Shown here piece by piece: positions 47,899 through 63,296 of a stretch of DNA of 64,000 nucleotides. The stretch lies in IMG/VR virus record IMGVR_UViG_3300047476_001180, positions 2,603 to 66,602 of that record; one strand, written 5' to 3'. The position numbers were made by a program, and so were the translations under genes. Source of the DNA: a virus. Position 1 is the stretch's first letter. Each line of letters starts with the position of its first letter. The notes under the pieces were generated by a model. That model saw nothing but the letters and a program-made list of their open reading frames with translations. It did no database searches and was not told the DNA's origin.

Positions 47899-48392
47899 TT
47901 TATTCTCAAATTTGAGATTTTCCGTACATATACGTGTACGTACAAAAAATTATAAAAAAATTTTTAAAAACGACTTTAGGGAGAATTCTATAGAATTTTA
48001 AAAGGATGTAAAAGATTTTATAAGATTTTGAAATTTAGAAATGTTTTAAAGGCTGTTGCATTTGTGGGGGGTAGGGGTCTGGGCATAGGTATCCCTATTA
48101 GGGAATTTTCCACGAGTATTAATCTATTTTAAACATTTTACCTGGGTATTCCCATTTAAGGAAGCTTCCCAGCCCTTCACAGGGTCTAAGAAGCTTCCCT
48201 ACCCCAAACCACTAGGGAAATGTTCTATGCATTAGGAGTAATGCTGAAAGGTGGTAAGGGTTTGTCACCTATGATACCAGTCAATGACTTGACTGCATCT
48301 AGGATAGAATCGTAATGATGAGCATAGGCTATGGATGGGATGTTTAGGATGAACATATTTTAATCTATGCGCTCTGTATGAACCTCTAAGGG

Positions 48393-49463
48393 TTATGCAT
48401 ACTCCTTGACAAGCTTTTCGCCGTAGGCAACGGTTTCCCGGTAGGAATCTTCATCAGTCAGAAGCGTAAGGAAATCTTCCTTGTGCTTTGCAGCCATACC
48501 GAAATTCCCTACGCTCCAACGCTTGGACTTGTCAGCTTTTGACCCGCCCGCGCCGTCACCATGAGTAAAATACTCAGTGAAGCCGTTGAAGAGGTCATAG
48601 CGAGATTTCCCAGAGTTACCCATGCCTCGCACGGTAAGTGCCTTAATTTCTTCGGCTCGGTTGTAAGAACGAGTTGAAAGAGATTCAGCCCTTTCACCTA
48701 CTCGACCAGAGAGGAAACCAGCAGCGGCATAGGCAGCCTCCGTAGGAGATTCGAGAGTGAGAGTCTGGAGATAATCCATATTCTCCATGATTCTCTGCCT
48801 GCCGTACAGAACACTTTGGAAGTAAGCACCAAGATTTTCGATGCTGGCGGCAGCATTTTTCGTATGGGGGACCGCGACTTTCACAGCACCGTCATAGGCA
48901 CGGGACCAGCGGAAAGTGTTCATACATACCACACGAATCATGGAATCCCTCGCCTCGAACATCATCGTACCATCATGAGAGGTAAGAAAGTTCAAGTAGG
49001 AAGAAAACTTATCCCCGTTAGTGGCTTGATACTCGCCCCCGTTAAGATCTACAGAGATGTAGAACTTTTTGCAGTTGTCGAGAGTGCCGATGGTCGTAAT
49101 TTTTACGCCGAGACCCGCAATAGAACGAGTCATACAATCCCAAATTTCCTTATTGGAAATAGGACGGTAGGAATCTTTCGGAGTGTGGAGTGGATGAAAC
49201 GTGCGGAAATGCTCGGGCAAATCTTCGCGGTGGCGAAGGTCAGCTAAGACAGATTTGTAGTCATTCAGATGAATGATTTTCATTTCGGCCTCTCCGGCAT
49301 CATTTACCGTCTCGATCTCGACAGATGGCGTACCTGTCACGATAGGAAAAAAGCAGTTTTTAGCGGTTACTTCGTTGATTTCCGCCTCATGATGCGCTTT
49401 TCCGTGCCATTCCGTTCCTGCGATTGAAACGGTATAATCCAATTCATTAATTTCGTCAGCCAT
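48393..49463 (-). CDS. DUF932 (LGT_TIGR03299-like) family protein
   Basis: WHG, YRPISN, LTSHDGT, IRVVCMNT, HT, LFNGFTEYFTH motifs; start at MADEIN. Confidence 0.88.
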   Translation of the reverse strand: MADEINELDYTVSIAGTEWHGKAHHEAEINEVTAKNCFFPIVTGTPSVEIETVNDAGEAEMKIIHLNDYKSVLADLRHREDLPEHFRTFHPLHTPKDSYRPISNKEIWDCMTRSIAGLGVKITTIGTLDNCKKFYISVDLNGGEYQATNGDKFSSYLNFLTSHDGTMMFEARDSMIRVVCMNTFRWSRAYDGAVKVAVPHTKNAAASIENLGAYFQSVLYGRQRIMENMDYLQTLTLESPTEAAYAAAGFLSGRVGERAESLSTRSYNRAEEIKALTVRGMGNSGKSRYDLFNGFTEYFTHGDGAGGSKADKSKRWSVGNFGMAAKHKEDFLTLLTDEDSYRETVAYGEKLVKEYA

Positions 49464-49679
49464 AGTAGTATTTTTTGTAGTGTGGTTTGAGGTTTGACTC
49501 TGCATTTTTTCGGACTTGTCACCGGGGAAAGTTTCGTTTTGAATCTTTCCGTTGCATTAAACCTTTTTCAGCGGTCCAGCTCGACTGCTACGCAGTTTCA
49601 TCGCTATTTGTTTGCAGGGACAAGAGGCTTGTCGATCTTGCGGGGACTTGTTATCCCGCTCACGTCTCTTTCCACCGCC
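49464..49679 (-). ncRNA. Candidate structured RNA / long leader upstream of DUF932
   Basis: Follows TTGCAA-16-TAGAAT; outer helix GGCGGT/ACCGCT and hairpins GCGGG/CCCGC, GACAAG/CTTGTC, ACTGC/GCAGT, GGAAAG/CTTTCC. Confidence 0.5.
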
Positions 49680-49707
49680 ATTCTAATACATGGCCGAACC
49701 TTTGCAA
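49680..49707 (-). promoter_or_regulatory. Sigma70-like early promoter
   Basis: TTGCAA-16nt-TAGAAT on the minus strand. Confidence 0.75.
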
Positions 49708-49907
49708 GTGATTTCTGTTCTTTTTCGATTCTTTTTCTTTTTCCCTCATAAATGCCCTTTTAAACGCCTTCACCCTCTCCCCGGTATTCCGACACTTTCC
49801 AAGCATTTAAACGCCTAGAATGGCAAGCAATCCATAAGCCTTGCCAAGTACCGGGGATTCCTCTTTTTATCATTCCTCACTTTTCTTTTTCCATTTCATT
49901 TTTTCAC

Positions 49908-49935
49908 TTGCAAAGGTTCAAGTGCTGTTTATTAT
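49908..49935 (+). promoter_or_regulatory. Sigma70-like promoter (divergent copy)
   Basis: TTGCAA-16nt-TATTAT; shares TCACTTGCAAAGGTTC with the 49680 promoter. Confidence 0.65.
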
Positions 49936-49939
49936 GTTC

Positions 49940-50075
49940 CTGCCGCCCGTTATCGTGTTTTCCCTTGGAAACGTTTTAGGCGGTCAAGCTTTGACTAACT
50001 TTGACACAGTTGGTACTGTCTTGAGTCGAAACGTTCGCAAGGGTTTTAGTTGCCTCTGGCCAGAGCGAGACAGTT
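49940..50075 (+). ncRNA. Candidate structured small RNA
   Basis: GC-rich, no credible ORF, helices GCCGCC/GGCGGT, TTTGACT/AGTCGAA, ACAG/CTGT, CTCTG/CAGAG, followed by T-rich tracts. Confidence 0.45.
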
Positions 50076-50097
50076 TTTAGATTTAGATTCTTTTTTA

Positions 50098-50297
50098 TTT
50101 GACAGATGGGGTTTCCTCTCCACTGTATCCATACCGAAGGACGGCACATTTTCCCCTCCCAGCCGGTCAATTCTAAGTGAACCTGGGCTCGTTTTCTTAG
50201 GGCATTTACCTAAGAACCTAAGGAGATTTCTTAGGTATTCTTAAGTAGATTCACTTAGAATTTTGACGCTGCGAGGATAGGTAATCGTCGTTGTCTG
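50098..50297 (-). ncRNA. Candidate structured RNA or inverted-repeat DNA element
   Basis: Follows TTGACA-16-TAGATT; 13-bp perfect inverted repeat AATTCTAAGTGAA/TTCACTTAGAATT enclosing two CCTAAG/CTTAGG hairpins. Confidence 0.45.
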
Positions 50298-50302
50298 TTT
50301 TC

Positions 50303-50330
50303 AATCTAAACAGATTACCAATCTTGTCAA
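50303..50330 (-). promoter_or_regulatory. Sigma70-like early promoter
   Basis: TTGACA-16nt-TAGATT with no ORF directly downstream. Confidence 0.7.
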
Positions 50331-50371
50331 TTTCTTTTTTGACAAGATTGGTTTTTCTTTTTGATTTGATT

Positions 50372-50620
50372 CTAGCTTGTCATCCGGTGAGCACGTCCGA
50401 TCTTCTCAAAGATAACTTTGTAAGTAGGATGATTTTTGGCGATCTTCAGACAGATTCTTTTCAGTTCTCCATTATCTTGGAAGTGGGGGAGAAGAGCCTC
50501 CCGAAGTTGCAAGCCGAGTTCATGGATGGTGGCATCCTTTTTATTTGTGAATGGGACGTTGTCACTGGTGATGTACGTTGGAGTGGAACGAATGACGGGG
50601 AGTGTTGTTGCTTTTGGCAT
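50372..50620 (-). CDS. Hypothetical early protein
   Basis: Preceded by TTGACG-16-TACACT-gtaagtcct-ATG (50630..50657). Confidence 0.75.
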   Translation of the reverse strand: MPKATTLPVIRSTPTYITSDNVPFTNKKDATIHELGLQLREALLPHFQDNGELKRICLKIAKNHPTYKVIFEKIGRAHRMTS

Positions 50621-50761
50621 AGGACTTACAGTGTAGCGAAAGAGTGATGTTCGTCAACGAAAAAAAAAAAGAAAAAAACGTCGAAATAAAAAAAAAAGAA
50701 AAAACCCGCCCCGGTGAACTGAGACCTTTAGATAAAATAAAGACCAAAGCTTTAGACGAGA

Positions 50762-50914
50762 TTAATTTAAACCTTTAAGATCACGATATTCTTGGTTTGA
50801 CATGGTTCCAATAACAACTCCCTGCGGCTTGGGTTGAAGTTTTTTCCAATCCGTTGTTTTCATAGTATCGGCCCATGAACCTTTGAAAGATGTATCTGGT
50901 TTTTGTTTTGCCAT
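50762..50914 (-). CDS. Hypothetical early protein (50 aa, MAKQKP...)
   Basis: Preceded by TTGACT-15-TACCAT-agtcct-ATG. Confidence 0.65.
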   Translation of the reverse strand: MAKQKPDTSFKGSWADTMKTTDWKKLQPKPQGVVIGTMSNQEYRDLKGLN

Positions 50915-50951
50915 AGGACTATGGTAGCGAGATTCAGGGAGAGTCAAGTTT

Positions 50952-51407
50952 TTATTGAAACATGTTCAGATTGAATTCTTTTTCAATCTGATAAATTTCA
51001 CTTCTCAGTGCTTCAACCTTGTTCATTGCAGACTGGATTGCATCAGCAGAATAATCTGTTTTGAATGGAGAAAATCCATCCTCGCGGAGAATGATGACAC
51101 CATCATTAACCTTTCCGAAATAAAAATCGGTTTTCATAGTTTCATAGAAACCTCCACCAAAATTGACGGAAATATTCAGAATCAGCGAGCCGTAACTGTT
51201 ATTGATTTTAACAGATACATTTGAATTATTTCCAAAATTCGGAAGATTCAAGCTTTCTACAAGATCGGAAAACTTTTTACTCTTCATGCCAGTGGCGAGA
51301 TAGGCTTTCCCGGTGAATGAAGAAATCGCTTCGATTACTTTCGGGGCATACTCGTTCATTATGCCGTTGACTACATTGGTTCTGGTGACTTTGAGGAGGA
51401 GAGACAT
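50952..51407 (-). CDS. Hypothetical early protein
   Basis: 151-aa ORF starting in the repeated promoter module. Confidence 0.75.
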   Translation of the reverse strand: MSLLLKVTRTNVVNGIMNEYAPKVIEAISSFTGKAYLATGMKSKKFSDLVESLNLPNFGNNSNVSVKINNSYGSLILNISVNFGGGFYETMKTDFYFGKVNDGVIILREDGFSPFKTDYSADAIQSAMNKVEALRSEIYQIEKEFNLNMFQ

Positions 51408-51447
51408 GGGACTGATCTATAATGGATAAAATGAAAGTTGTAAAGTA

Positions 51448-52158
51448 CTATTTTGCGCTCAATGCACTCAGACGTTTGATTTCATGTTTAAGAAATTCAA
51501 TTCGGGTTTTTCTTCGTGCATCCCTTGCTTCGGGATAATTATTTGTGCCATCACGAAACAAAGACTTAACACGAAACAAAGACTTAACATCATCTTCTCT
51601 TTCAGGCATTGCAGCACCATGAAAATTTATTGCGAGAGTTTTAACTTCATTAGCATGTAGCCACCAAATGAATTGAAATTCAGAACTGGCATTGCAAAGG
51701 AAAGTGTTCGAATCATCTGTTTCGAATTCTTTTAAAATACGTTTCAGAGAGGTACGAGTCCAAAGACGTTTGAAGGAGGTGTTTCTCATGGGGACTGATC
51801 TATAAGGGATAAATGAAGGGTTGTAAAGTACTATTTTGCACTCATAATCAAGAAATTTCAAACGTATTTCTTTATAACCGTACACCGGGGAAGAGTCGAA
51901 AAGCATTCGATCTCGAACGTCTAATTCAAGATTTTCTTTTTTTACCAGTGTATTAGGAATCGTTACATTCGAATCCAAAAAGTTTTGTGCCATCTTTGTA
52001 ATTGCACTCTGCACCCCTTCATCCATCCACAAATCTTTAAATGCAGGACTGGCATTACAGAAAAATACACATATACTATTCTCGAATTCCTCTTTCAGTT
52101 GTTTCAGAAAAGGAACAGTCCAAAAGCATTCTTCAAAGGCGGTGAGATTAAGATTCAT
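51448..52158 (-). CDS. Fusion ORF of two paralogous ~110-aa domains (internal start at 51789)
   Basis: MNLNLTAFEECFWT... reads through the repeat into MRNTSFKRLWT...EFLKHEIKRLSALSAK. Confidence 0.75.
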   Translation of the reverse strand: MNLNLTAFEECFWTVPFLKQLKEEFENSICVFFCNASPAFKDLWMDEGVQSAITKMAQNFLDSNVTIPNTLVKKENLELDVRDRMLFDSSPVYGYKEIRLKFLDYECKIVLYNPSFIPYRSVPMRNTSFKRLWTRTSLKRILKEFETDDSNTFLCNASSEFQFIWWLHANEVKTLAINFHGAAMPEREDDVKSLFRVKSLFRDGTNNYPEARDARRKTRIEFLKHEIKRLSALSAK

Positions 52159-52190
52159 GGGGACTGATCTAAATGAAGGGTTGTAAAGTA

Positions 52191-52493
52191 CTATTTTGCA
52201 CTCAGACGCTTGATTTCGTGTTTAAGAAATTCAGTCCGAAGTTGAATTGCTTCTTGAAAATCCAGACCATATTCATGAAACAGTGAATCGGGTATCATTT
52301 TAGCCCGAATTCCTGAAAATTCAAATGAAAGTTTTGCAATTCGTTCCCGATGTTTGGGATTTTCCCAAATGGATTTAAATTCTCTGCTGCGAAGACAGAT
52401 GTAGGGGAAACCAGAGGTCGATCTTAGGTATTCTTTTAGAATACGGGTAACTGATGTTTTGGTCCAAATGCGTTCGAAAGAGGTGTTTTTCAT
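52191..52493 (-). CDS. Paralog of the 51448 family
   Basis: MKNTSFERIWT...EFLKHEIKRLSAK. Confidence 0.8.
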   Translation of the reverse strand: MKNTSFERIWTKTSVTRILKEYLRSTSGFPYICLRSREFKSIWENPKHRERIAKLSFEFSGIRAKMIPDSLFHEYGLDFQEAIQLRTEFLKHEIKRLSAK

Positions 52494-52538
52494 AGTGGGG
52501 ACTGATCTATAAGCGATAAAGTGAGGGCTGTCAATCAG

Positions 52539-52697
52539 TTATTTGAAAGTATCGATCATATTATCCAGCCATGCAAGCTGTTCTTTCTTAGTCTTTGTGA
52601 TGGAAAACCCGAATTTATAAAGTTCCCATTCATCATCCGACATTTCAGAAATTTTTGTTTTGAGATTTTGCAGGCATTCAATTCTGGTGAGCTTCAT
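52539..52697 (-). CDS. Hypothetical early protein (52 aa, MKLTRIECLQ...), below the ORF-track cutoff
   Basis: TTGACA-16-TATATT-cccga-ATG (52703..52730), open to TAA at 52539. Confidence 0.65.
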   Translation of the reverse strand: MKLTRIECLQNLKTKISEMSDDEWELYKFGFSITKTKKEQLAWLDNMIDTFK

Positions 52698-53443
52698 TCG
52701 GGAATATATCAGCTAATGATCACCTGTCAAGACCTTTATCAAAGGAAACACAAAAACCGAATCTGATTTGATTCGGGAACTATTATTGAAATGTCTTAAG
52801 TTCTTTTCTCATATCTCTAGTATCTTTCTGTTTTAAATCTAAATTTGCCTTCCTAAATCTTTTCATTCCTTCTGTTTTCGTATGCCCCCATTCCTATCTT
52901 AGTCGGAGTCCCAATGATGCGGCAAACTAAGATTTTCGACCCACGTGCCAAAGCGCCCGTCCAATTCATGAATATTTTTAGATTCAGAAGGTTTTTCCAC
53001 AGGGAGGACGAAAGCTTGAAAAGTTTCACGTCCTTTGAGGAAGGGATTTCCAAAAGGAATACAAGAAATATGTTTTCATAGATATTTCTTTCCAATATAA
53101 AAACCAATCGCAAAGCAAATAATACGAAAGATTAGAGTCTTTGATACCTGAAGGAAGTAATATTCGATAATCTGAAGACGTGTGGGAAGCATAAGGAAAT
53201 ATGGCGAGGGTTAAGGAAGTGTCAAGGGGAGGGGAATTTTAAAATTGTTGAAGGATTCAAATATTCACTTGAAGCGGAAGCGCGTGAGAAATATTGAAAG
53301 GGCTGATCTTATACGATTTTATACGTTTAGAAAGATTTTATTTTAATCTTCTTTTCCATCCATATCATATATAATGCAACAAGCAAATCATCTCTGCATC
53401 TTTATCAGCGATCCAATCCGCCCGCATTGCACGGAGTTGTTTT

Positions 53444-53758
53444 TTAAATTTCGCTAGGTTCATCGTTTTCAATAGCGGAGGTTTCGGCTTCTGTCAACTT
53501 ACAATATTTTTTCAGAAAGTTTTCCATGATTTCCCGTGCATCCCCCCAAAAATTCCAAGTGTTTAATAAAGGATGAATATTCTTGAATCGTTTCAGAACA
53601 TAAAAAACTTTCACTTTTGAAACGTTCGATACAATATTGAGGTGATTTTCATCAGGAACATTTGAAGAATTTTTGTATTTAGAAATGATGTCGGCAGCAA
53701 TATGTTTCGCCCATGGAATCATTTCAAGCGGCTTGTGTGCAAGGGAATAATGGCTCAT
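53444..53758 (-). CDS. Hypothetical early protein
   Basis: Preceded by TTGACA-17-TATAGA. Confidence 0.65.
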   Translation of the reverse strand: MSHYSLAHKPLEMIPWAKHIAADIISKYKNSSNVPDENHLNIVSNVSKVKVFYVLKRFKNIHPLLNTWNFWGDAREIMENFLKKYCKLTEAETSAIENDEPSEI

Positions 53759-53794
53759 AGTGGGAATGTTCTATAACTGATAAACCTTTTCCTG

Positions 53795-54037
53795 TCAATC
53801 ATTAAAGTATTCAGCACGCACAATATTGTAATCGGCAGAAATATTCAATTCTGTGAAAATCTTTGCAAATAGATCACCCGCCCATGAATTTACTGGCATT
53901 TTCTTTTTATGTTTGAAATTTTCTCGAATCTGCTGCCATGCTTGGACCATATCAGGATTTTTCATCATCGTGTACTGTGTGATGCGCTCGCGGCATACAA
54001 GGTCAAAACAAACATGGAGTGTGCGAATGGCATTCAT
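53795..54037 (-). CDS. Hypothetical early protein
   Basis: Preceded by TTGCAT-16-TATTAT (54046..54073). Confidence 0.7.
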   Translation of the reverse strand: MNAIRTLHVCFDLVCRERITQYTMMKNPDMVQAWQQIRENFKHKKKMPVNSWAGDLFAKIFTELNISADYNIVRAEYFND

Positions 54038-54085
54038 GGTGTTCTATAATATGCAGGATCATACTTTATGCAAGCGATAAAACGA

Positions 54086-54129
54086 AAAACCCGCTTGAAG
54101 TCCGCAAGGGAATTTTCAAACGGGTTTTT
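54086..54129. terminator. Probable intrinsic terminator
   Basis: AAAAACCCG-c-TTGAA...TTCAA-a-CGGGTTTTT; same outer arms as the late terminators. Confidence 0.6.
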
Positions 54130-54324
54130 CTACCTCCTCATACCACTCCATCAGGATATTTCCTAATGGTTCAATCCAATAGCCACCAGGGACATTACCG
54201 ACATCCATAAAGGATTTGTCATCAGGTTTTCCTGATTGAATTCAATAGCAAAATTTTTATTCATATTTTTTTTATAATTATTCCAAACATATTTTATATA
54301 TTTGCTCTAATATAATATATTAGA

Positions 54325-54353
54325 CGGGGGAGGAACCCCATTTTCCTCCCCCG
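54325..54353. terminator. Strong GC hairpin, possible terminator
   Basis: CGGGGGAGGAA-7nt-TTCCTCCCCCG; lacks a clean U-tract. Confidence 0.5.
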
Positions 54354-54551
54354 CACTATGCCTAACCACCTTTTCGAACGATTGCACCAAAAACTTTCAG
54401 ATGTGCATGAGCTTTTTTAATTGCTTCGTCCTGTTCCTCTTCTGCGAGTTTTGCACTTGCTGCCTCCATCACAGATGGACTAAAAACATCTGGATTGGTA
54501 GTAAGTTGTATGAGTCGGGTTTCATGGATAATCTTGGATTTGAATTGTTTT

Positions 54552-54627
54552 TGGTGTCCCCTGCTGGATTTGAACCAACGTTTAAAATTCAGAGAATTTT
54601 CGTCCTTGACCGCTAGACGAAGGGGAC
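54552..54627 (-). tRNA. tRNA with Glu-like body and atypical anticodon loop (UCUCUGA)
   Basis: GTCCCCT/AGGGGAC acceptor, GTCT/GGAC D stem, AAAAT/ATTTT anticodon stem, TTCAAAT T loop, encoded CCA. Confidence 0.85.
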
Positions 54628-54633
54628 AAATTT

Positions 54634-54792
54634 TTATGCTTTTGCCATCAGGTTTGCAGCTTTGTTAGCAAGACGGCGATGGAACTTGTTTCGGGTGTTC
54701 GGTTTAGCGAACCGGTAGTTGAAGAATTCGGCATCCAGGGTGCGAAGGGTTTTCATATCAGAGGCAGCGGCGAGACGAGAGAGGATGGACAT
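54634..54792 (-). CDS. Small basic protein (52 aa, MSILSRLAAA...)
   Basis: Open frame downstream of TTGCAC-16-TAAAGT (54842..54869), ending just before the tRNA. Confidence 0.6.
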   Translation of the reverse strand: MSILSRLAAASDMKTLRTLDAEFFNYRFAKPNTRNKFHRRLANKAANLMAKA

Positions 54793-54847
54793 ATATTTAG
54801 GGTTGCTTGGGTTTGTTATTTCGTTCTCTTGAACGTGTTGAACTTTA

Positions 54848-55243
54848 TCACTTATCTTGCATAGTGCAAGCGGTTTTTTCGTCTTTTTGTTCGTTGTTTA
54901 TTTTTGTTCCGAAAATGTCTTCGAGTGCAGAATGAATGACGCCAGGGGGATAACCAGTTGCATTTGAAAGAAAAACAATTCCATCTTTATTTCCAGCATT
55001 TGCTGCTTCGAAATGTTCTTCTAAGATGTGATTATCTTCCTCGTATAAACGAACAAGGCACTCATCTCCGTCAATTTCAAATCGGAAATTTACAAAGTAG
55101 TTCCATTGTATTGAATCCGAATTATCTTCATCACCTTCCTCATCACCCCACGAAGCATCGTACACCCCATGCTCTCCGCGAAAGATAACGCCAGATTGAA
55201 CGATTTCGATAAACTTTGCCCATGTGATTTTTCCAGGTTTCAT
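54848..55243 (-). CDS. Acidic hypothetical protein
   Basis: 131-aa ORF in the minus-strand run. Confidence 0.7.
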   Translation of the reverse strand: MKPGKITWAKFIEIVQSGVIFRGEHGVYDASWGDEEGDEDNSDSIQWNYFVNFRFEIDGDECLVRLYEEDNHILEEHFEAANAGNKDGIVFLSNATGYPPGVIHSALEDIFGTKINNEQKDEKTACTMQDK

Positions 55244-55399
55244 CTGAAGAATAGATATTTGAGTGCTGCGAGTTTGAAGGATAGACTTAACAAGACTGCA
55301 AACATAGCCAGAATGGCAAGACTTGCAAGGAGTAATTTAGCTTTCATCAAATTATTACAAACTGGTGATCGCCAAAAATAAAAACTGTACTCATGAGGT

Positions 55400-55801
55400 T
55401 TAAATTATTTTAGGAATGAAAGGATCATCAGAATCATCGTCAGAATTCTCAGAATCAGTAGAATCATCCTGAATAGATTCATTATCTGATGAATCCAGAC
55501 AATCGGGATTAGGAACTTTTAGACCTTTCTCTTCCAGATAGAGTTTAGCCTGTTCCTCACGGGAGAGAGATCTATCTTTCATATTCATCCTTTTCCGTCC
55601 GCTGAATGCAAGCCATGCTGCTTCATTCTCGCCTACTACATCAGGCTTATGTGATGTTGTAGAACGTGGCGCGGAGATCGTAGCAGAAGCGAGAGTAATG
55701 CCCCGAGACGCTAGCTGTGGCAGTAGTTGGTCCAATGCCGCCAATTGATCAGGAAGCGATTTAAAAAGAGATAGATTGATAGAGAGATTTGCAGTTGCCA
55801 T
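55400..55801 (-). CDS. Hypothetical protein with acidic C-terminal tail
   Basis: Ends ...DDSTDSENSDDDSDDPFIPKII; directly downstream of the RuvB-like gene. Confidence 0.75.
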   Translation of the reverse strand: MATANLSINLSLFKSLPDQLAALDQLLPQLASRGITLASATISAPRSTTSHKPDVVGENEAAWLAFSGRKRMNMKDRSLSREEQAKLYLEEKGLKVPNPDCLDSSDNESIQDDSTDSENSDDDSDDPFIPKII

Positions 55802-55815
55802 GATTGTTATTGATA

Positions 55816-56826
55816 TTAGAAGGTGAAACCCATTTCTTCGATTTTGTTTTTATATGCTTTGCCAGTCTTTGTCAATGCAAGATGACCGTTATTTTCAACT
55901 TTCATAACATTCATATTGCACGCATACGCAATAGCTTTTGTTAAAACACCCTCAAGGGCTGGCACCATTGCAGTAATTCGCATCTTGCTTACAGTAGAAT
56001 TACCCAATTTTGAAATCATTTCAACTTCAGCTTTATTGAAACCGAGCGGGAACATTTCCTGCTGTCGAAGTGCTTCTAAGACAATATCGCGGCTAATGGT
56101 CGTAGTTCCTTGTGAAATACAGAGGGGGAGAATGCTATCATTTAGAAGATTTACAATAGGGCGAGCCGTTCCCCTACCACATCCAGAGATCAGTGCAAGG
56201 ATTTTATCATCCTCCACAGTCAAATTGTACTTGGAAACCAAAAGTTTTGCAATTTGCAGAATTTCCTGATTATTGTAAAGAGATAGGTTGAAAGTCTGCC
56301 AGCGGCTTAGAATAGCAGGATCGACTTTTCCCGCTTGATTTGTCCCTAGGATAATCACTTTATTCGAACGATCCGGGACAAAGAAATTAGAACCAACTTG
56401 AATAGATGTTCCGATTTTAGAAGGATCACCCATCTTCATAAGAAAAGATTTCAGATAAAGATGGGAAACTTGATTAGGTTTCATTTCATGCACCTCATCA
56501 AGGAAAAGCACAAAACTAGCTTCAGACTCTAAACGAGCGAACCACTTGTCGAAATCAACTTTCAAACGAATTTCTTCTGGATTCTCCACGCGAATGAAAG
56601 GAACTTTGAGAATGCTAGCCAGTTCTCGACCATAGATTTCAGCAAGATTAGTTTTACCGAGCCCAGCTTCGCCAAGCAGCAACGGCCAAGTGAGCGCAAT
56701 TTTTTCTCCTGTCTCAACCATCCTCGCGGCATTGGAGAGACTGAGGGAAAATGCACTTTTAACGTTGTTTTGACCGACGACTCCGGCGAATGCTGGATGA
56801 AAAGGGGATTCAATAGGGTTTGGCAT
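55816..56826 (-). CDS. ruvB: RuvB-like AAA+ ATPase
   Basis: VVGQNNVK, Walker A GEAGLGKT, Walker B FLDEVH, LSRW, GRGTAR, PLGF, C-terminal winged-helix-like LTKTG. Start MPNPIES after promoter 56836..56863. Confidence 0.8.
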   Translation of the reverse strand: MPNPIESPFHPAFAGVVGQNNVKSAFSLSLSNAARMVETGEKIALTWPLLLGEAGLGKTNLAEIYGRELASILKVPFIRVENPEEIRLKVDFDKWFARLESEASFVLFLDEVHEMKPNQVSHLYLKSFLMKMGDPSKIGTSIQVGSNFFVPDRSNKVIILGTNQAGKVDPAILSRWQTFNLSLYNNQEILQIAKLLVSKYNLTVEDDKILALISGCGRGTARPIVNLLNDSILPLCISQGTTTISRDIVLEALRQQEMFPLGFNKAEVEMISKLGNSTVSKMRITAMVPALEGVLTKAIAYACNMNVMKVENNGHLALTKTGKAYKNKIEEMGFTF

Positions 56827-57032
56827 AGGACTTATATAGTGGCGAGATTTTAGACTTTTGCAAGGGGTTTTTGTTACTTTTTTATCAATCAATAAAAGTG
56901 AGGATCATATTAAAATCGGTATCATATCGTCTTGGGTGCCCGTATTCACTAAAAAATCTATTTACTTTCAGTTATAGAAATTATAATAGATTTTAATATT
57001 TAATTAGGCTTATTGTTGATTGTTATGAATGA

Positions 57033-57278
57033 TTAATTGTTATTAAATGAAATTTTATTAAAATCGATTTTAACAATGTACCAATAATTTCCGACAGCTT
57101 TAATTAGTTCGGTATTAAACGGCAAACGATTTGTTACATAATCGAAATAATGTTTTTCATCGCGAGCTAGTTCTTGTTCTTCTCGTAGTAAAGCTTCTTG
57201 CGGAGATAGATGAACAATTTTTTCTTTACATCCACTTAAAAAAATAATACCGGATAGTAATATGATTAAGATTTTCAT
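57033..57278 (-). CDS. Small lipoprotein
   Basis: MKILIILLSGIIFLSG-C lipobox. Confidence 0.7.
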   Translation of the reverse strand: MKILIILLSGIIFLSGCKEKIVHLSPQEALLREEQELARDEKHYFDYVTNRLPFNTELIKAVGNYWYIVKIDFNKISFNNN

Positions 57279-57292
57279 TTTCGAAAAATTGA

Positions 57293-57592
57293 TTATTTTT
57301 GTTGTTCTGGAAGAGGAGCAATCGTTACTATACCGTTAAACTGGTAACGAAATAAGAATCTTGTACCTTTGATTCGAACAACCTTCCAATCATTTGACAT
57401 CGTTTCCTCGATGATCGCGCCTTCTGGTAATCCACGCATGTCGATTGTAGGTTCATCGATATGTTTTTGGGTTTGTTCTTTTGCTGATGTGTTGATCACT
57501 AAAATCCATCCAAGGACTGTGCAAAATACAACTAACAGTACTACCTTCATCATATAGCAGTCCGATTCACTATCTGGTATGTTTTTTGGCAT
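57293..57592 (-). CDS. Membrane/secreted small protein
   Basis: Hydrophobic segment VVLLVVFCTVLGWILVI; the true start may be the internal MM. Confidence 0.65.
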   Translation of the reverse strand: MPKNIPDSESDCYMMKVVLLVVFCTVLGWILVINTSAKEQTQKHIDEPTIDMRGLPEGAIIEETMSNDWKVVRIKGTRFLFRYQFNGIVTIAPLPEQQK

Positions 57593-57620
57593 AATATTTT
57601 AAATTGGTGAATTTTTATTT

Positions 57621-57698
57621 TGGTAGGAGAGACAGGATTCGAACCTGCATTGATCCTTTACGGTACTACGCATTAGAAGTGCGTTCCGATACTCTCCC
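57621..57698 (-). tRNA. D-armless tRNA-like RNA, anticodon UCU (Arg), long variable region
   Basis: GGGAGAG/CTCTCCT acceptor, 7-nt connector TATCGGA, ACGCA-CTTCTAA-TGCGT, GCAGG-TTCGAAT-CCTGT, CCA. Confidence 0.8.
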
Positions 57699-57707
57699 GT
57701 AGAAATC

Positions 57708-57908
57708 TTACATAAAATAATCAACGGGATCATAGTCCAGTACAACTTCTGAGTTGTCAACAATAAGCATTGTGCCTTTGGGAAATTCTTTACAGGGGTT
57801 TGTTAATTCGACTTCCACAGAATGTGAATTAATGACCTTAATCCGTCCATTACCGTACCAGTGCCCGTCTAACTTAAAGGTAATTAGTTGATTATAGGAG
57901 AATTTCAT
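57708..57908 (-). CDS. Small hypothetical protein
   Basis: 66-aa beta-rich ORF in the gene run. Confidence 0.65.
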   Translation of the reverse strand: MKFSYNQLITFKLDGHWYGNGRIKVINSHSVEVELTNPCKEFPKGTMLIVDNSEVVLDYDPVDYFM

Positions 57909-57914
57909 GGTGAT

Positions 57915-58295
57915 TTATTTCGCGGCCTCTGATGATAAGCGAGGATATTCGTATGTCAAGCGTGTTTCTTTATCTTTCCACGTTTCACGATAAGTTTTAA
58001 AAGGTGTTTCAATCTTTGCAGTTTCCCAACCATCAAATTTATATCCAAAATAAACTTCGCGGGTGATTTTCATATCTTCGTCAAAGATTTGCGCATTTAA
58101 TCTCCGTCTAGTATGTTTCGAACTTCCCTGTTGGTGGAAAGAAATAACTGTTACAGGAACGTATTTAGATTCAATTAGAATCCTGTCAGGCTCTTTCATG
58201 CAAGGAGTTAAATTTATTAAAAAATACACGAAAATTGCAAAAGGAAATATAAAAATTCCGAGGATCGAAAAGAGAAATATATTATCGGTTTTCAT
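57915..58295 (-). CDS. Membrane-anchored hypothetical protein
   Basis: N-terminal TM segment. Confidence 0.7.
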   Translation of the reverse strand: MKTDNIFLFSILGIFIFPFAIFVYFLINLTPCMKEPDRILIESKYVPVTVISFHQQGSSKHTRRRLNAQIFDEDMKITREVYFGYKFDGWETAKIETPFKTYRETWKDKETRLTYEYPRLSSEAAK

Positions 58296-58301
58296 AAAAA
58301 T

Positions 58302-58499
58302 TCAAATTCGTGAAGGATAATCGCCGTCAACGGAAATACTCTTTTGAGAAAGTTGTACTCCGAGATTTAATAAAACATCCCGCAAAATACGAGAAATGTC
58401 ATCGCCTGATTGCCAACCACGAATAAGTTGTCCTTCATCGTCATAAATTGCATAACAATCTGATTCACTATCAGTTCCTAGTGTATAGTTCTTGGGCAT
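58302..58499 (-). CDS. Hypothetical protein (MPKNYTLGTDSESDCY...)
   Basis: ORF directly after a tRNA 3' end. Confidence 0.65.
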   Translation of the reverse strand: MPKNYTLGTDSESDCYAIYDDEGQLIRGWQSGDDISRILRDVLLNLGVQLSQKSISVDGDYPSRI

Positions 58500-58511
58500 A
58501 ACGTTTTAAAT

Positions 58512-58652
58512 TGGTGGCTCTGGTAAGGTTCACACTTACATCATCTTTGATCATGAGTCAAAGGCTTTCTTCTCATGGTGGAAGTTTGTTGACATCGGTT
58601 TGGATTTTCACCATTCCTTTCGTTTTGGTTGTCCTCTTTAAGCTACAGAGCG
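58512..58652 (-). tRNA. 141-nt tRNA-like RNA, anticodon CAU, with 72-nt D-loop
   Basis: GCTCTG/CAGAGC acceptor with C1:C72 mismatch, GCTT/AAGC D stem, TTTGA-CTCATGA-TCAAA, GTAAG-TGTGAAC-CTTAC, ACCA. Confidence 0.75.
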
Positions 58653-58848
58653 AATTATTATTTAACTGAAATAGAATAGTTCAGGGTCGATTCTCTATCA
58701 AACCATCCAGTCTTTTTAATCCTCAATACTTCAACAAAAATCCTGATACGTTCTTTAATTTCAAAAGATGCGCCATAAAAGGCACTACACGGGAAACGCT
58801 ATAGTGATCCTCGATGAAGTATCTATCAATAAGAACAAGTTTATTCAT

Positions 58849-59193
58849 TTATGCTTTAATGTTGTGCTCCTTTTCGAGCTTTTCGAGACAAGCTTTCACG
58901 CCATATTTACGGCAGAAACGGTCTTTCCAATAACAATTAGAAAGCACTTCGACTTTCATGTCATCTTTGATAAGAGTCATTTTAGTTGCACCACCGTACA
59001 ATTTAATACCATAATGTTCATACATACCAATTTCACACCGAAGATCAATATCAGGGACAAGCTCATCTTCATAATCTTTTCGGAAATGTTCAATTCTGAT
59101 ATGGTACCCCTGATCTTTGAGGGATTTCAGGGAAGCATCATTCTTTGGTGCTTTTTTCGAGACTTTTGCTTTGCGGAGTGTTGTTTGGTTCAT
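58849..59193 (-). CDS. Hypothetical phage protein
   Basis: GYHIRIEHFR...GGAT...C..KDRFCRKYG pattern; start set at MNQTT. Confidence 0.7.
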   Translation of the reverse strand: MNQTTLRKAKVSKKAPKNDASLKSLKDQGYHIRIEHFRKDYEDELVPDIDLRCEIGMYEHYGIKLYGGATKMTLIKDDMKVEVLSNCYWKDRFCRKYGVKACLEKLEKEHNIKA

Positions 59194-59282
59194 AGTTTTA
59201 ATGGTTTTGTAAGATAGAAAAGTCCTGTCAACGAACATACCAATATCATAAAATGGTTCGAATGGTTCGCGCGTTCTCATGA

Positions 59283-59483
59283 TTATACTTTGTCGTGGTG
59301 GTCTGTCAAATGCTTTTTGAGAAATTTATTAGTTTCACGAATAGGATTATTACTTTTCATATATGCATCCAGAATTCGATCACGTTCATCGAGAATACCC
59401 TCTTTATACCAAAAATCTTTAGTAAGTTTCATGGTAATTGAAACCAAAATCACTACAGGAAGAAAAATTGCAAGAAATAGCAT
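59283..59483 (-). CDS. Small single-TM protein
   Basis: Hydrophobic N-terminus. Confidence 0.65.
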   Translation of the reverse strand: MLFLAIFLPVVILVSITMKLTKDFWYKEGILDERDRILDAYMKSNNPIRETNKFLKKHLTDHHDKV

Positions 59484-59486
59484 ATA

Positions 59487-59741
59487 TTATTTACTTCCTA
59501 CGAGTTTATTCAAAAGGTCTTCAAATATAGTACCCTCAAGTCCTTCGATTGCATCAATAATAAATGACAAAAAAACTAAAGATATTGCTAACCAAGATAA
59601 AAATAACGCAAGACCTGGCATTAACCGCCATTTTGGAAGTTTGCGATATTTTACATATGCATTGTAAAATCTTACGAAGAGAATTGCCCCAACAACTCCA
59701 AAAAAATAAAAGAATAGTAAAGAGAAGAAAATGTTGATCAT
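59487..59741 (-). CDS. Two-TM membrane protein, paralog 3
   Basis: Y..G...A....R.YN...SWLA...KLV shared with the next two ORFs. Confidence 0.75.
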   Translation of the reverse strand: MINIFFSLLFFYFFGVVGAILFVRFYNAYVKYRKLPKWRLMPGLALFLSWLAISLVFLSFIIDAIEGLEGTIFEDLLNKLVGSK

Positions 59742-59744
59742 ATA

Positions 59745-59993
59745 TTATTTGCCTACGAGTTTATCGAAAAATCGAGAAATTTTATCCCAAATATCTGAAT
59801 TAACGACGTATGAGAAAATATCAGCAAGTATATTAATAATAACAATAACTACTGCAAGCCAAGAGAACCACACCAAGTCTCCCGATAACCTCGCCCAATA
59901 GTGTTTAAAATGATTATACATTCTAATCCACATGATAGCGGGAATCATTCCAATTAGATAGTATATTACAATAGTTAGTATGAAATCGATCAT
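59745..59993 (-). CDS. Two-TM membrane protein, paralog 2
   Basis: YLIGMIPAIMWIRMYN...FSWLA...FFDKLVGK. Confidence 0.75.
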   Translation of the reverse strand: MIDFILTIVIYYLIGMIPAIMWIRMYNHFKHYWARLSGDLVWFSWLAVVIVIINILADIFSYVVNSDIWDKISRFFDKLVGK

Positions 59994-59994
59994 G

Positions 59995-60231
59995 TTATTT
60001 ATATTTTACAAGTTTGTCGAAGAATTGTGAAATTTTCAAATTTTTATGAATTAGATATATAACATGTACTATCACACAGACAATACCGTATAGAACTGCT
60101 AACCAAGAAAAGTATAGTGCGTTCCCTGTTATTTTATCAAATCGGGATTGTGTAAATGTATTATGTAAACGAATCCACATAGCGGCACAAAGCATTCCAA
60201 CCAAATAAATTATTAGAAATTTAATGAGCAT
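59995..60231 (-). CDS. Two-TM membrane protein, paralog 1
   Basis: YLVGMLCAAMWIRLHN...FSWLA...FFDKLVKYK. Confidence 0.75.
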   Translation of the reverse strand: MLIKFLIIYLVGMLCAAMWIRLHNTFTQSRFDKITGNALYFSWLAVLYGIVCVIVHVIYLIHKNLKISQFFDKLVKYK

Positions 60232-60700
60232 AATTTTAGTCTCCTACAATGTTATTCCATTCTTCAGGGGTTAAGTCGGGCATACCATCGTCCAAAAGTC
60301 TGACAAAGTCAACATGACTTTTATGAATATATAGCTCACCAGCACCATCTTCATCAAGATAAACATATAGACTTGTTTTAAAATCACCTAGAAAAATAGT
60401 GCCTTTTTTATATGTACGATCCTCTTCGCATCCAGGAAACCAAACAATAGTAGTTATTTCTTTATTTAGACGAATTTGCGCGTTCAGCTAAATCAAATCG
60501 TAAAACATCGCCAGTAATAGGCTTTTCTCTGAGTTGTTTCGCGGCTTCTATGAATTCAGTTAGAACATCGGGATCAATAAATGGCAAAGGTTCTTTCTTT
60601 GCATTTTCTTTTTTATTACTCACTACAATCCGGCCAGATATGGGCCAATTATGATTATTTGAACATGGTGTTCAGGATAATAGCGAGATATATTCCTTTG

Positions 60701-60892
60701 TCAATGCGATTCACCAGAAATATCAACAAATATTTGTTTGGTAAATTTATTGCATAGAATAGCGGTTAATACAAATAATCCGAAAACGAAAATCCAACTA
60801 ATATCCATAATTTCCCATACTTTCAGAGTTAGAAGAAAAACATTCATTCCCCATGAAAAGAGTAATAAACAAAAGTATACGACAGATTTCAT
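60701..60892 (-). CDS. Small two-TM protein
   Basis: LTLKV...ISWIFVF pattern. Confidence 0.6.
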   Translation of the reverse strand: MKSVVYFCLLLFSWGMNVFLLTLKVWEIMDISWIFVFGLFVLTAILCNKFTKQIFVDISGESH

Positions 60893-60924
60893 AAGTTTAA
60901 GATCGTTCTATCGTTGTATAATAT

Positions 60925-61158
60925 TTAGAAGATTCTTTTCCACCAAGGAAGCGGAGGATCAGGAAGTAGCACGGCACATCTATAAGAATTTAAAAAATAT
61001 TCTAATGATTCCGTGCTTGAAATCTTAAATGCGCTTTCACTATCTTGTTGCCATGCGACTTTTCCAGCATGTGCTGATAGAATCTTCACCGCAAATGTTT
61101 CATATCCATAACGAATCATCCATCGGCTTCCTACTTTGGGGATAGTTGTAGTGTTCAT
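60925..61158 (-). CDS. Hypothetical early protein
   Basis: TTGACA-17-TACTAT-ccctc-ATG upstream; ends PWWKRIF. Confidence 0.7.
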   Translation of the reverse strand: MNTTTIPKVGSRWMIRYGYETFAVKILSAHAGKVAWQQDSESAFKISSTESLEYFLNSYRCAVLLPDPPLPWWKRIF

Positions 61159-61207
61159 GAGGGATAGTAAAGGGTTAAGAGGGGTTTGTCAAGGTTTTTG
61201 TATTTTT

Positions 61208-61915
61208 ATGAAAAACTTACAAAATACTTCGGATGATGAACTACAAGAAATAATAAATTCAAATAATTCTATTAGTGCAATTCTGCGCGCATTGGATATT
61301 AGCGAAACGTGCCCATATAACAGAAAATTACTAAAAGAGAGAATGAACAATTTAGATCTGTCGATCCATAAACAAAACAAAATACATACTAACCCATTCT
61401 CTCCGATTGTTTCTAATGCTATTCCAGATGAATTGTTTTTTTTGTAAACGAGATAGTAGAGTATCAGGAACTTCTATAAAAAATAGATTAATTCGTTATA
61501 AAGATTGGATCGAAGTCTGTTCATCTTGCGGATTAGGAGATTTATGGAATGGTACAAAACTATCACTACATGTAGATCATATCAATGGTGATGGCACTGA
61601 TAATAGAATAGAAAATCTCAGATTAATATATGTTCTTGTGGAAAACATATTCATAATCGGGCAAGTCGATGTGTTGTTTGCAACGGCAAAGTTAATCAAA
61701 GAATATCATGGCCTTCAAAAGAAACTATTCAAGATGAAGTCTGGAATTATTCTATTGTCGAATATGCCAAAAAGTTAAACGTTTCCGATAATGCATTACG
61801 CAAACATTGTCAAATAAATGGAATTAAAATACCTAATGCTGCCTATTCAAGGCATTTAGTTTTAGGTAATAAAGAAGAATGCGAAAGAATCAAAAAGCTA
61901 ATTCTTTCGCATTAA
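61208..61915 (+). pseudogene. HNH homing endonuclease, frameshifted (pseudogene or sequencing error)
   Basis: N-terminal HTH (SISAILRAL), CSSC...LHVDHINGDGTDNRIENLRLI in a second frame, CSC...CVVC...WPSKE...LNVSDNALRKHC in another frame; the expected CPNCH is missing. Confidence 0.8.
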
Positions 61916-61916
61916 A

Positions 61917-62009
61917 TGGTGCGTGTGGTAGGACTCGAACCTACAAAGGGGTTTCATCCCCATACCGAATTATGAGTTCGGGCCTTTCACCAATTCAGGT
62001 CACACACGC
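61917..62009 (-). tRNA. Type-II (long variable arm) tRNA with CAU anticodon
   Basis: GCGTGTG/CACACGC, CCGAA-CTCATAA-TTCGG, variable arm GGGG/CCCC, GTAGG-TTCGAGT-CCTAC, A73-CCA. Confidence 0.88.
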
Positions 62010-62023
62010 TTTTCTAAAATTTT

Positions 62024-62107
62024 TGGTACCGCACCCCGGACTCGAACCGGGAACCGATTAAGGAGCAGATTTTAAGTCTGCTGGGTTTACCATTTCCCCA
62101 GTGCGGC
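62024..62107 (-). tRNA. tRNA-Leu (UAA)
   Basis: GCCGCAC/GTGCGGT, GCAGA-CTTAAAA-TCTGC, long variable region, CCCGG-TTCGAGT-CCGGG, A73-CCA. Confidence 0.93.
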
Positions 62108-62142
62108 ATTTTTCTCTTTCCTTCTAACTACTTACCAATCTA

Positions 62143-62634
62143 TCACACTTTCTCAACCTCTGCAACCTCTTTCTTCATTTTCTGCTCTTCCTCTAAAAGT
62201 TTTTCATCAACCTTTGCAAGCACTTTCTCTTTACTCATTTTACGTTTCTTTCTTTGAGCACCTTTAATCTTTTTCTGATAATCTTGTAAAGATTTCAAAT
62301 ATTGTGCAAGTTCTTGTTGTTGTCCTTGAATACATTCTTGTGTATATGTGATTTGAGATTCGTAAAATAGAATATCATCATCAATCTGCCCTATGATGTA
62401 TTTTTCTAATTCGATATGGGCATCACTTCTGTTTACAAAGTACACACAATAATCTTCTCGTAAATATTCACCTTCATCGCTGATATAACTTATAGAAGTC
62501 TCGTCCACATCACCGTTTGCATCAAAGGAAAGCTTAATTTTAGCGATTTTAAATCCGACAACTTTTTGTCTAGGGTGATCGACATACCAGATAATTGTTC
62601 CTATGGGATATTTTGGCGTAAAATTTAGTGTCAT
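62143..62634 (-). CDS. Hypothetical protein with C-terminal coiled coil
   Basis: PKYPIGTIIW N-terminus; start set at MTLNF after a TTGCGA promoter-like element. Confidence 0.7.
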   Translation of the reverse strand: MTLNFTPKYPIGTIIWYVDHPRQKVVGFKIAKIKLSFDANGDVDETSISYISDEGEYLREDYCVYFVNRSDAHIELEKYIIGQIDDDILFYESQITYTQECIQGQQQELAQYLKSLQDYQKKIKGAQRKKRKMSKEKVLAKVDEKLLEEEQKMKKEVAEVEKV

Positions 62635-62921
62635 GGTATTATCTACTATCAAGTGTTTTCAACCTTCGCAACAGCTTTTTCAATACTCTTTAAAGAATGA
62701 TAAAATATAAACGATTCGAAACGTCATCTACTCGTCTCGTAAGACTTCGGACTATTTGAATATAGAGTTAGCCAAATACTTCTCCTATATTCTCGTATTT
62801 CTTATTATTTTATCACTCTTTAAAGAATATTTTATTAAATTTAGAGAACTGTTTCATCCTGCACGTCACAGTTTTTATGTGCAAACTCTAAATTTAATAA
62901 AATACTTCAAACATTATAAAT

Positions 62922-63296
62922 CTAGTCTGAATCCTGTTCCTCATCCAGTTGCAACCTAGAATCTTGGAGTATTTTGCAGTTCAAATTATTTCCCCGCGTC
63001 ACAGCCCCAGCGTTCTGCCCACTACCTCCGCACGCATCGCACGTTCGGTAGTATGGCCCTGATTGGATTTCGACTTGCCCGCTACCCCAGCATGTGCGGC
63101 AGCGGCGTCTTGCTTCATCGGCCTTCCACTTCTCACGCATTCGATCCACGGTATGGCAGATGTCGTTTAGCTCTGAGTCCAGCAGCGTGAGGTTGTGATT
63201 CTGGCTCATGTGCTCGAACAGCACCCAAAAGGCAGAACCAGTCATGGCACCCAACCCTGCGGGCTGGTGGTCGTCGTTTGTGTTTTCAATGCTCAT
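62922..63296 (-). CDS. Small protein with DnaJ-type CxxCxGxG zinc finger
   Basis: CRTCWGSG and CDACGGSG; GC-rich coding; ATG lies inside an attC-like hairpin. Confidence 0.65.
   Translation of the reverse strand: MSIENTNDDHQPAGLGAMTGSAFWVLFEHMSQNHNLTLLDSELNDICHTVDRMREKWKADEARRRCRTCWGSGQVEIQSGPYYRTCDACGGSGQNAGAVTRGNNLNCKILQDSRLQLDEEQDSD

Follow-up and report, generated by a model that had tools for sequence, protein, structure and literature searches.

A tRNA-Met-derived element with a 72-nucleotide D-loop in an uncultured freshwater T4-like phage: a possible non-decoding stable RNA

Introduction

Can a phage tRNA gene that carries 72 nucleotides in the place of its D-loop still serve translation, or has it become the remnant of a tRNA or an RNA of another kind? 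This question is raised by a 141-nt locus on the minus strand of a viral DNA fragment (58512-58652; unless stated otherwise, positions are those of the window, i.e., the whole stretch of 64 kb that was analysed, out of the 66.6-kb IMG/VR record IMGVR_UViG_3300047476_001180). According to the CheckV estimate, the record covers 28% of a genome. A gp23-type major head protein (PHROG 138) is encoded on the same fragment, along with a baseplate wedge protein and an AAA ATPase. Freshwater metagenomes contain many relatives of the capsid protein, and the sequencing runs in which the stretch occurs bear the label freshwater or freshwater sediment. The source is therefore an uncultured freshwater T4-like myovirus. 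Its G+C content amounts to about 33-36%, with values up to 0.39-0.42 at 48001-56000 compared to about 0.33 in the structural module. A gene for a 495-aa HNH or homing-endonuclease-like protein (7347-8834, minus strand; PHROG 559, E 8e-121) adjoins the major head protein gene.

Genomic Surroundings

Between 53 and 64 kb, the window features small minus-strand genes which are mostly only a few bases apart, with a normal tRNA-Arg(UCU) interspersed among them (54552-54627). Further members of this region are a tRNA-Arg(UCU)-like gene without D arm (57621/57624-57698, minus strand), a 93-nt tRNA(CAU) (61917-62009, minus strand) and a tRNA-Leu(UAA) (62024-62107). The element shares its strand with the tRNAs and fills a gap of 223 nt that separates the ORFs 58723-58848 and 58302-58499. 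All four other tRNA or tRNA-like genes on the contig end in an encoded ACCA, and the CCA of the element thus fits the local habit. The tRNA(CAU) at 61917-62009 carries an 18-nt variable-arm hairpin (GGGG-AUGAAA-CCCC), i.e., a class II-like shape which is unusual for Met or Ile, and a strong 16-bp terminator hairpin (61878-61913) lies 3' of it. Likewise, a 90-nt tRNA(UAU) with a long variable region is found near the tRNA-Met of the relative G019. Just upstream of the element's neighbourhood, three paralogous hydrophobic ORFs (84, 82 and 78 aa; C-termini FDKLVG(S)K) are arranged in tandem on the minus strand (59487-60231).

Architecture of the Element

Read from its 5' end, the element starts with the acceptor strand CGCUCUG (58646-58652), followed by U8 and A9 (58644-58645) and the 5' strand of the D stem, GCUU (58640-58643). 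The position of the D-loop is taken by the A-rich insert of 72 nt (58568-58639; 35 A, 15 C, 14 G and 8 U), which contains AAUGGU, the canonical D-loop core with its GG, at 58610-58615 (RNA 38-43) and the hexamer CAUGAG, complementary to bases 32-37 of the anticodon loop, at 58572-58577 (RNA 76-81). The 3' strand of the D stem, AAGC (58564-58567), is followed by C26 (58563), by the anticodon arm UUUGA-CUCAUGA-UCAAA (58546-58562, with CAU at 58553-58555 and G37 at 58552), by the variable region GAUGAU of 6 nt (58540-58545) and by the T arm GUAAG-UGUGAAC-CUUAC (58523-58539), in which G53-C61, U54, R57 and A58 are kept and G55 and U56 replace U55 and C56. The acceptor 3' strand CAGAGCC (58516-58522) and the discriminator A73 with the encoded CCA (58512-58515) complete the molecule. 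In the order 7/4/5/5, the cloverleaf stems comprise 20 Watson-Crick pairs and a single mismatch of C1 with C72, so that six Watson-Crick pairs remain in the acceptor. The CAU tRNA-like frame with four stems, CCA, 72-nt D-loop, UGUGAAC loop and mismatched base 1 had been proposed in an earlier, sequence-only reading, and all of it was confirmed from the sequence together with its coordinates.

The same reading had expected that standard tRNA finders miss the element, which proved correct: ARAGORN made no call on it with or without the intron option, and a comparison with Rfam yielded no RF00005 match, neither at the gathering score nor at E<=10. A search of a 271-nt stretch against Rfam gave only an FMN match of 10.6 bits, which is noise, and the insert matched no family at all. 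Some 20 nt before the 5' end of the element, a weak sigma-70-like site (TTGATA-17-TATTCT, 58673-58701, minus strand; 9/12 matches) is a possible promoter candidate only, and such sites are no more frequent in the window than in shuffles.

Statistical Support for the tRNA Frame

A cloverleaf descriptor was applied which called for at least six of seven acceptor pairs, a D stem of four pairs, a D-loop of 7-100 nt, an anticodon stem of five pairs with U33, a variable region of 4-6 nt and a T stem of five pairs. With N+CCA added at the 3' end, the element was its sole match in the window, and none of 300 dinucleotide shuffles produced a match. When the CCA was omitted, the result was not significant (494 matches over 1425 shuffled windows, at least one in 412 shuffles). 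Since the CCA is part of a repeated 22-nt sequence (see below), 16 canonical tRNA positions chosen beforehand were scored as a separate test, namely U8, G10, Y11-R24, A14, R26, Y32, U33, R37, Y48, G53-C61, U54, U55, C56, R57, A58 and Y60. The element features 13 of these 16, the tRNA-Arg 15, and the sole other stem match in the real window (59365-59458) 4, while the 1168 stem-only chance matches from 1086 shuffled windows reached 11 at most. The frame of the element is a genuine tRNA derivative and not a product of chance.

Descent From an Elongator tRNA-Met Gene

When the loop was shortened in silico to 7-11 nt, about the canonical size of a D-loop, ARAGORN called a tRNA-Met(CAU) in 45 of 50 variants; it made no call with the insert present. 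A covariance model built on the element alone (R1) found ordinary tRNA-Met genes in two complete but distant relatives, G019 (147166-147238 of that genome; 41.1 bits) and G037 (48296-48368; 36.9 bits), whose capsid proteins share about 53-54% identity with that of this phage. Both genes were confirmed as tRNA-Met by ARAGORN. Outside the D-loop and the variable region, 39/60 and 34/60 frame positions are identical to the element, and the two relatives have in common with it the UAGCU start of the D stem, the CUCAU of the anticodon loop, the T stem GUA.G/C.UAC and A73. Where the stems differ, they do so on both sides (D stem GCUU/AAGC in the element versus GCUC/GAGC; T stem GUAAG/CUUAC versus GUAGG/CCUAC). 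The genes of the relatives feature an 8-nt D-loop AAUGGUUA, the anticodon loop CUCAUAA with A37 and the T arm GUAGG-UUCGAAU-CCUAC, whereas the element has the 72-nt loop, G37, UGUGAAC, C26 and the 1:72 mismatch.

Judged by these shared stems and bases, the element is a descendant of an elongator tRNA-Met gene. The core AAUGGU arose in only 374 of 50000 shuffled inserts, and because it stands in the middle of the insert, the D-loop looks as if it had been expanded on either side of the old core and not simply interrupted.

Capacity for Decoding and Initiation

The changes that separate the element from its relatives affect bases of the elbow and of decoding, i.e., U55 to G, C56 to U, the purine at 26 to C and A37 to G. 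As far as is known, A37 is universal in tRNAs that read codons starting with A, and it is present in the tRNA-Met of both relatives, in contrast to the G37 of the element. Positions 55 and 56 of the T-loop are the partners of G18 and G19 in the elbow. On the strength of G37, the T-loop UGUGAAC and C26, the element does not look like a working methionine tRNA, and it is most likely a tRNA-shaped RNA in which decoding has been lost.

The sequence-only reading had further compared the mismatch at base 1 to that of initiator tRNAs. The C-C mismatch at 1:72 does exist, and the element has in common with bacterial initiator tRNA-fMet the unpaired 1:72, C1, G2:C71, C3:G70, CAU and A73. The likeness ends at other positions: initiator tRNAs are defined by a row of three G-C pairs at the foot of the anticodon stem and have A11:U24, whereas the element shows only one G-C pair there and C11:G24, and its C72 is part of the repeated leader. 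By these bases, the element is not an initiator tRNA. As C72 lies inside the repeated 22-nt leader, the 1:72 mismatch may be a recombination scar.

Predicted Fold of the Element and Its Insert

In the ensemble of nested folds, the acceptor (pair probability 0.97-1.0) and the T stem (0.83-0.95) form a stable predicted 12-bp minihelix ending in the encoded ACCA. The D stem and the anticodon stem reach probabilities of only 0.02 and 0.03, respectively. Instead, CAUGAG of the insert (RNA 76-81) is predicted to pair with CUCAUG of the anticodon loop (positions 32-37) at a probability of 0.94-0.96. A hexamer complementary to the anticodon loop occurred in 428 of 20000 shuffled inserts, and the pairing, noticed after the fact, is suggestive. 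Constraining the RNA to the cloverleaf yields -24.6 kcal/mol compared to a minimum free energy of -27.4, i.e., the cloverleaf is 2.8 kcal/mol worse. The whole RNA folds with a z-score of -1.65, and the fold of the insert is not significant (-7.7 kcal/mol, z -0.95). Copies of the insert were found neither in the window nor in 168 fetched loci by short-word BLAST.

An H-type pseudoknot inside the loop had been proposed from the letters. The interleaved segments do exist, with GACA at RNA 20-23, AUGGUG at 39-44, UGUC at 59-62 and CACCAU at 73-78. Nevertheless, such an arrangement is barely above chance (an interleaved pair of 4+6 bp in 9/1000 shuffled inserts, a 6-bp stem in 51/1000), and it is not favoured thermodynamically, each of its stems having a pair probability of at most 0.04. 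The pseudoknot is thus unsupported by the folding model.

The predicted pairing of insert and anticodon loop allows for a bolder and rather improbable idea, namely a self-masking mimic of tRNA-Met, whose anticodon would be hidden by the C-AUG-AG of the insert until a partner opens the pairing. The unusual G37 would lengthen the six-base pairing over C32-G37, and the acceptor, T arm and CCA end would stay tRNA-like. The partner could be a protein on the A-rich loop, an anticodon nuclease or a synthetase. If true, the phage would have used a tRNA frame to make a decoy or regulator that can be switched.

Repeated Leader and a Second Remodelled tRNA-Like Gene

A 22-nt leader, CACCAAUUUAAAANNUUAUGCC, at 58495-58516 (minus strand) overlaps C72-ACCA of the element and reaches the start codon of the downstream ORF. 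It has two matches in the window compared to 0.01 expected, the second copy being located at 57588-57609. The downstream ORF (58302-58499, minus strand; 65 aa) starts 12 nt past the CCA and is without a family in Pfam and PHROG; its N-terminus (MPKN..SESDCY) is paralogous to that of a 99-aa ORF at 57293-57592. The leader belongs to a longer repeat of about 65 nt with 86% identity (57554-57609 and 58452-58516, minus strand), which comprises the leader itself and the first 15 codons of both ORFs (99 and 65 aa), although the two are otherwise different.

Each copy of the repeat is directly preceded by a non-canonical tRNA-like gene. The gene preceding the 99-aa ORF is the tRNA-Arg(UCU)-like one. 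It lacks a D arm and combines a 7-bp acceptor with the canonical anticodon loop CUUCUAA, a variable region some 19 nt long and a T arm of canonical type; its encoded CCA is located 11 nt before the repeat. It scores 40.9 bits against the Rfam tRNA model and is missed by ARAGORN. Thus, two tRNA-like genes with a remodelled D region are each placed directly before the start of a paralogous ORF, and each has a tRNA with the same anticodon elsewhere on the contig. This arrangement fits a role of tRNA-like modules as processing points, with RNase P acting at the 5' side and a cut in the AU-rich trailer, and it is just as compatible with recombination at the 3' ends of tRNAs. The position of C72-ACCA within the repeated leader hints at recombination in a plastic region, and by its sequence the repeat of about 65 nt may be a joint of recombination or shuffling.

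Search for Relatives and Transcripts

In the phage collection, no DNA match was obtained for the element or for the region 54000-63000, and nothing in viral_contigs matched the exact 28-nt 3' end of the element. The one match to a loop-only pattern lay inside a coding region, had unpaired stems and was rejected as chance, and a search with the leader pattern gave none. Neighbouring proteins were followed as well. For a 143-aa neighbour and the AAA ATPase, viral_contigs contains no close relatives; a profile of the ATPase led to two loci at 36-37% identity that carry no tRNA, and a 13.9-bit match at these loci was dismissed as noise. Four homologues of the 143-aa protein with 61-67% identity (P0127-P0130) occur on assembly contigs, and none in viral_contigs or genome_contigs. 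Proteins of close relatives (P0122/P0123, about 80% identity) are found on assembly contigs, too, and a single 54.5-kb contig from one relative encodes both P0123 and P0129 (81% and 61% protein identity).

The route via the capsid protein comprised at least 80 IMG/VR and at least 80 metagenome loci. Among those listed, the five closest IMG/VR records are without the element's region, and the closest metagenome contig (37.6 kb) stops before it. On 50 of 80 IMG/VR records (>10 kb), R1 produced matches with E<=1 in three, the best at 0.36 and none of them credible. A relaxed descriptor run on the tRNA regions of relatives returned only artefacts spanning adjacent tRNAs. Across these searches, no homologue of the element was found. 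The stretch is listed for four DNA runs from three studies, whose contigs are identical over it and show no variation, and no RNA run is among those listed. Judged by titles and the beginnings of abstracts, no literature was found that addresses phage tRNA genes with insertions in the D-loop or D arm.

Interpretation and Alternatives

Taken together, the element might best be explained as a non-decoding, tRNA-processed and putatively stable RNA which resembles T4 RNAC in its architecture and possibly punctuates the downstream mRNA, a reading to which we assign a probability of about 0.45. The element would be transcribed together with the flanking minus-strand genes, RNase P would cleave at C1 (with U at -1), and a 3' cut within the AU-rich AUUUAAAA would be followed by trimming back to the CCA, as for bacterial tRNAs. 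The expected product is stable and about 141 nt long, and the same processing would release the mRNA of the 65-aa ORF, which starts 12 nt downstream. With its anticodon loop probably paired to CAUGAG, this RNA might, like T4 RNAC, act off the ribosome by mimicking a tRNA or by serving as a decoy or scaffold. Support for a stable RNA comes from the kept frame, the surviving D-loop core, the ACCA end in line with the other tRNA or tRNA-like genes, the 223-nt gap among closely spaced genes, the remodelled neighbour gene, the changes at G37 and in the T-loop, the pairing of loop and insert and the parallel to RNAC. The reading is weakened by the lack of a homologue, the identity of all DNA copies, the absence of a significant fold, the decay-like nature of the changes, the position of C72-ACCA in a repeated leader and the 2.8 kcal/mol by which the cloverleaf falls behind. 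Except for 1:72, all stem pairs are Watson-Crick (20 pairs), and the other deviations from the canonical positions are unpaired, three of them at contacts of the elbow or the D junction. By a rough estimate, five random changes over the 69 frame bases would spare the stems so well in a proportion of about 0.08. Because the stems are perfect and all other deviations sit at unpaired positions, we lean towards function.

The main competitor is a decaying tRNA-Met gene, inactivated by insertion into or expansion of its D-loop and drifting without function in a hyperplastic region. The loss of U55, C56, R26, A37 and the 1:72 pair would be expected of such a gene, as would an insert that is A-rich (35/72) and unstructured; no relative bearing the element emerged from the searches made, the repeated leader over C72-ACCA suggests recombination, and the other tRNA with a CAU anticodon (61917-62009) could make the element redundant. 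Still, decay would have to leave the stems intact apart from 1:72 and place the other changes off them, for which the rough estimate of 0.08 applies, and it would have to retain AAUGGU. Furthermore, since the neighbouring genes are only a few bases apart, 141 useless bases should have been lost from so tightly packed a region. We therefore regard decay as a serious but rather unlikely explanation. A working decoding tRNA, for Met or, after lysidine modification, for Ile, which tolerates a giant D-loop, appears more doubtful again. The acceptor, anticodon and T stems are intact, the GG-containing D-loop core is kept, and CAU, A73, G2:C71, C3:G70 and CCA are present, which we take to be the identity elements of MetRS. 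Against this stand G37 in place of the A37 of the relatives, the altered T-loop positions 55 and 56 and the predicted loss of the anticodon stem to pairing with the insert. No D-loop this large was found in the literature, judged by titles and the beginnings of abstracts, and we know of no tRNA with a D-loop of 72 nt.

The sequence-only reading had also considered a D-loop intron. In this case, removal of all or part of the 72 nt would leave a normal tRNA about 75 nt long. The recognition of 45 of 50 loop-trimmed variants as tRNA-Met by ARAGORN agrees with it, and yet the idea has very little in its favour otherwise: judged from the sequence, a bulge-helix-bulge cannot be drawn at the junctions, the insert has neither significant structure nor an Rfam intron family, and its 72 nt fall below the size of group I and II introns, which as self-splicing elements are far longer. 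RtcB, Rnl2 and a splicing endonuclease were not found on the 66.6-kb fragment, which says little as the fragment represents only 28% of the genome; a search of the fragment for Rnl1 (RNA_lig_T4_1) gave no match, and neither did its control, which makes this blank uninformative. Moreover, splicing would leave G37 and the T-loop unrepaired. Least credible of all is a small membrane protein read from the plus strand (ORF 58511-58669; 52 aa including a hydrophobic segment) to which the tRNA shape would be incidental. The frame is indeed open over 52 codons and its translation includes a hydrophobic run, whereas the tRNA frame is far beyond chance, the neighbouring genes are all on the minus strand and the protein has no match in Pfam or PHROG. 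Hydrophobic codons are to be expected from the T-rich antisense of an A-rich stretch by composition alone, and the ORF is probably a by-product of this strand.

Independently of its fate, the origin of the element can be read directly: it is an elongator tRNA-Met whose D-loop has been expanded and whose elbow and position 37 have been changed. If the non-decoding stable RNA is functional, the element would exemplify a way in which phages convert tRNA genes into non-decoding RNAs, and it offers a defined construct. Together with the D-armless tRNA-Arg-like gene 0.9 kb away, the element points to recurrent remodelling of the D arm in this phage. As the element is a single orphan sequence, the weight it can carry is limited.

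Comparison With Known Systems

Extra segments in the D-loop are also a feature of archaeal tRNA introns with bulge-helix-bulge junctions. The element shares the interruption of the D-loop with them and differs by the lack of such a junction structure and by its bacterial-virus context; as mentioned, no splicing endonuclease was found on the fragment. With tmRNA, the element has in common a tRNA-like module of acceptor and T arm that is interrupted by a large insertion, and a frame of 13 codons from AUG to UGA can be read in the insert. It differs from tmRNA in that it keeps an anticodon arm and has its insert in the D-loop, without supported pseudoknots, and neither ARAGORN nor Rfam reported a tmRNA on it.

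Two accounts of phage T4 describe RNAC and RNAD as tRNA-shaped RNAs from the tRNA cluster that have been without a known role for decades (PMC3014915; PMC9697503). The T4 gene rnaC (species 1 RNA, 139 nt, AF158101 70908-71046) was analysed here and features an acceptor-like stem with two U-U mismatches, a canonical T arm, a long and stable hairpin in the D region and a 10-bp hairpin in the position of the anticodon arm; its z-score is -4.57, compared to -1.65 for the whole element. There is no sequence relation between the two RNAs, and R1 has no match on rnaC; its sole match in the T4 tRNA-cluster locus lies off this gene and is weak (15 bits, E 0.18). Further differences concern the D region, which is a strong hairpin in RNAC (z -4.57) and an A-rich, unstructured insert in the element (z -0.95), as well as the T-loop and the middle arm, with UUCGAAU and a 10-bp non-anticodon hairpin in RNAC compared to an altered T-loop and an anticodon arm with a CAU loop in the element. 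The annotated gene of RNAC ends without an encoded CCA, whereas the element encodes one. Both, in turn, are located in the tRNA region of a T4-like phage and on the tRNA strand, both combine an acceptor with a T arm, both have a D region of about 70 nt replacing the D arm, and both are not called as tRNA by the finders. The likeness to T4 species 1 RNA that had been pointed out from the letters thus holds: among described RNAs, RNAC, whose large D-region hairpin is flanked by an acceptor-like stem and a canonical T arm, comes closest to the element in architecture.
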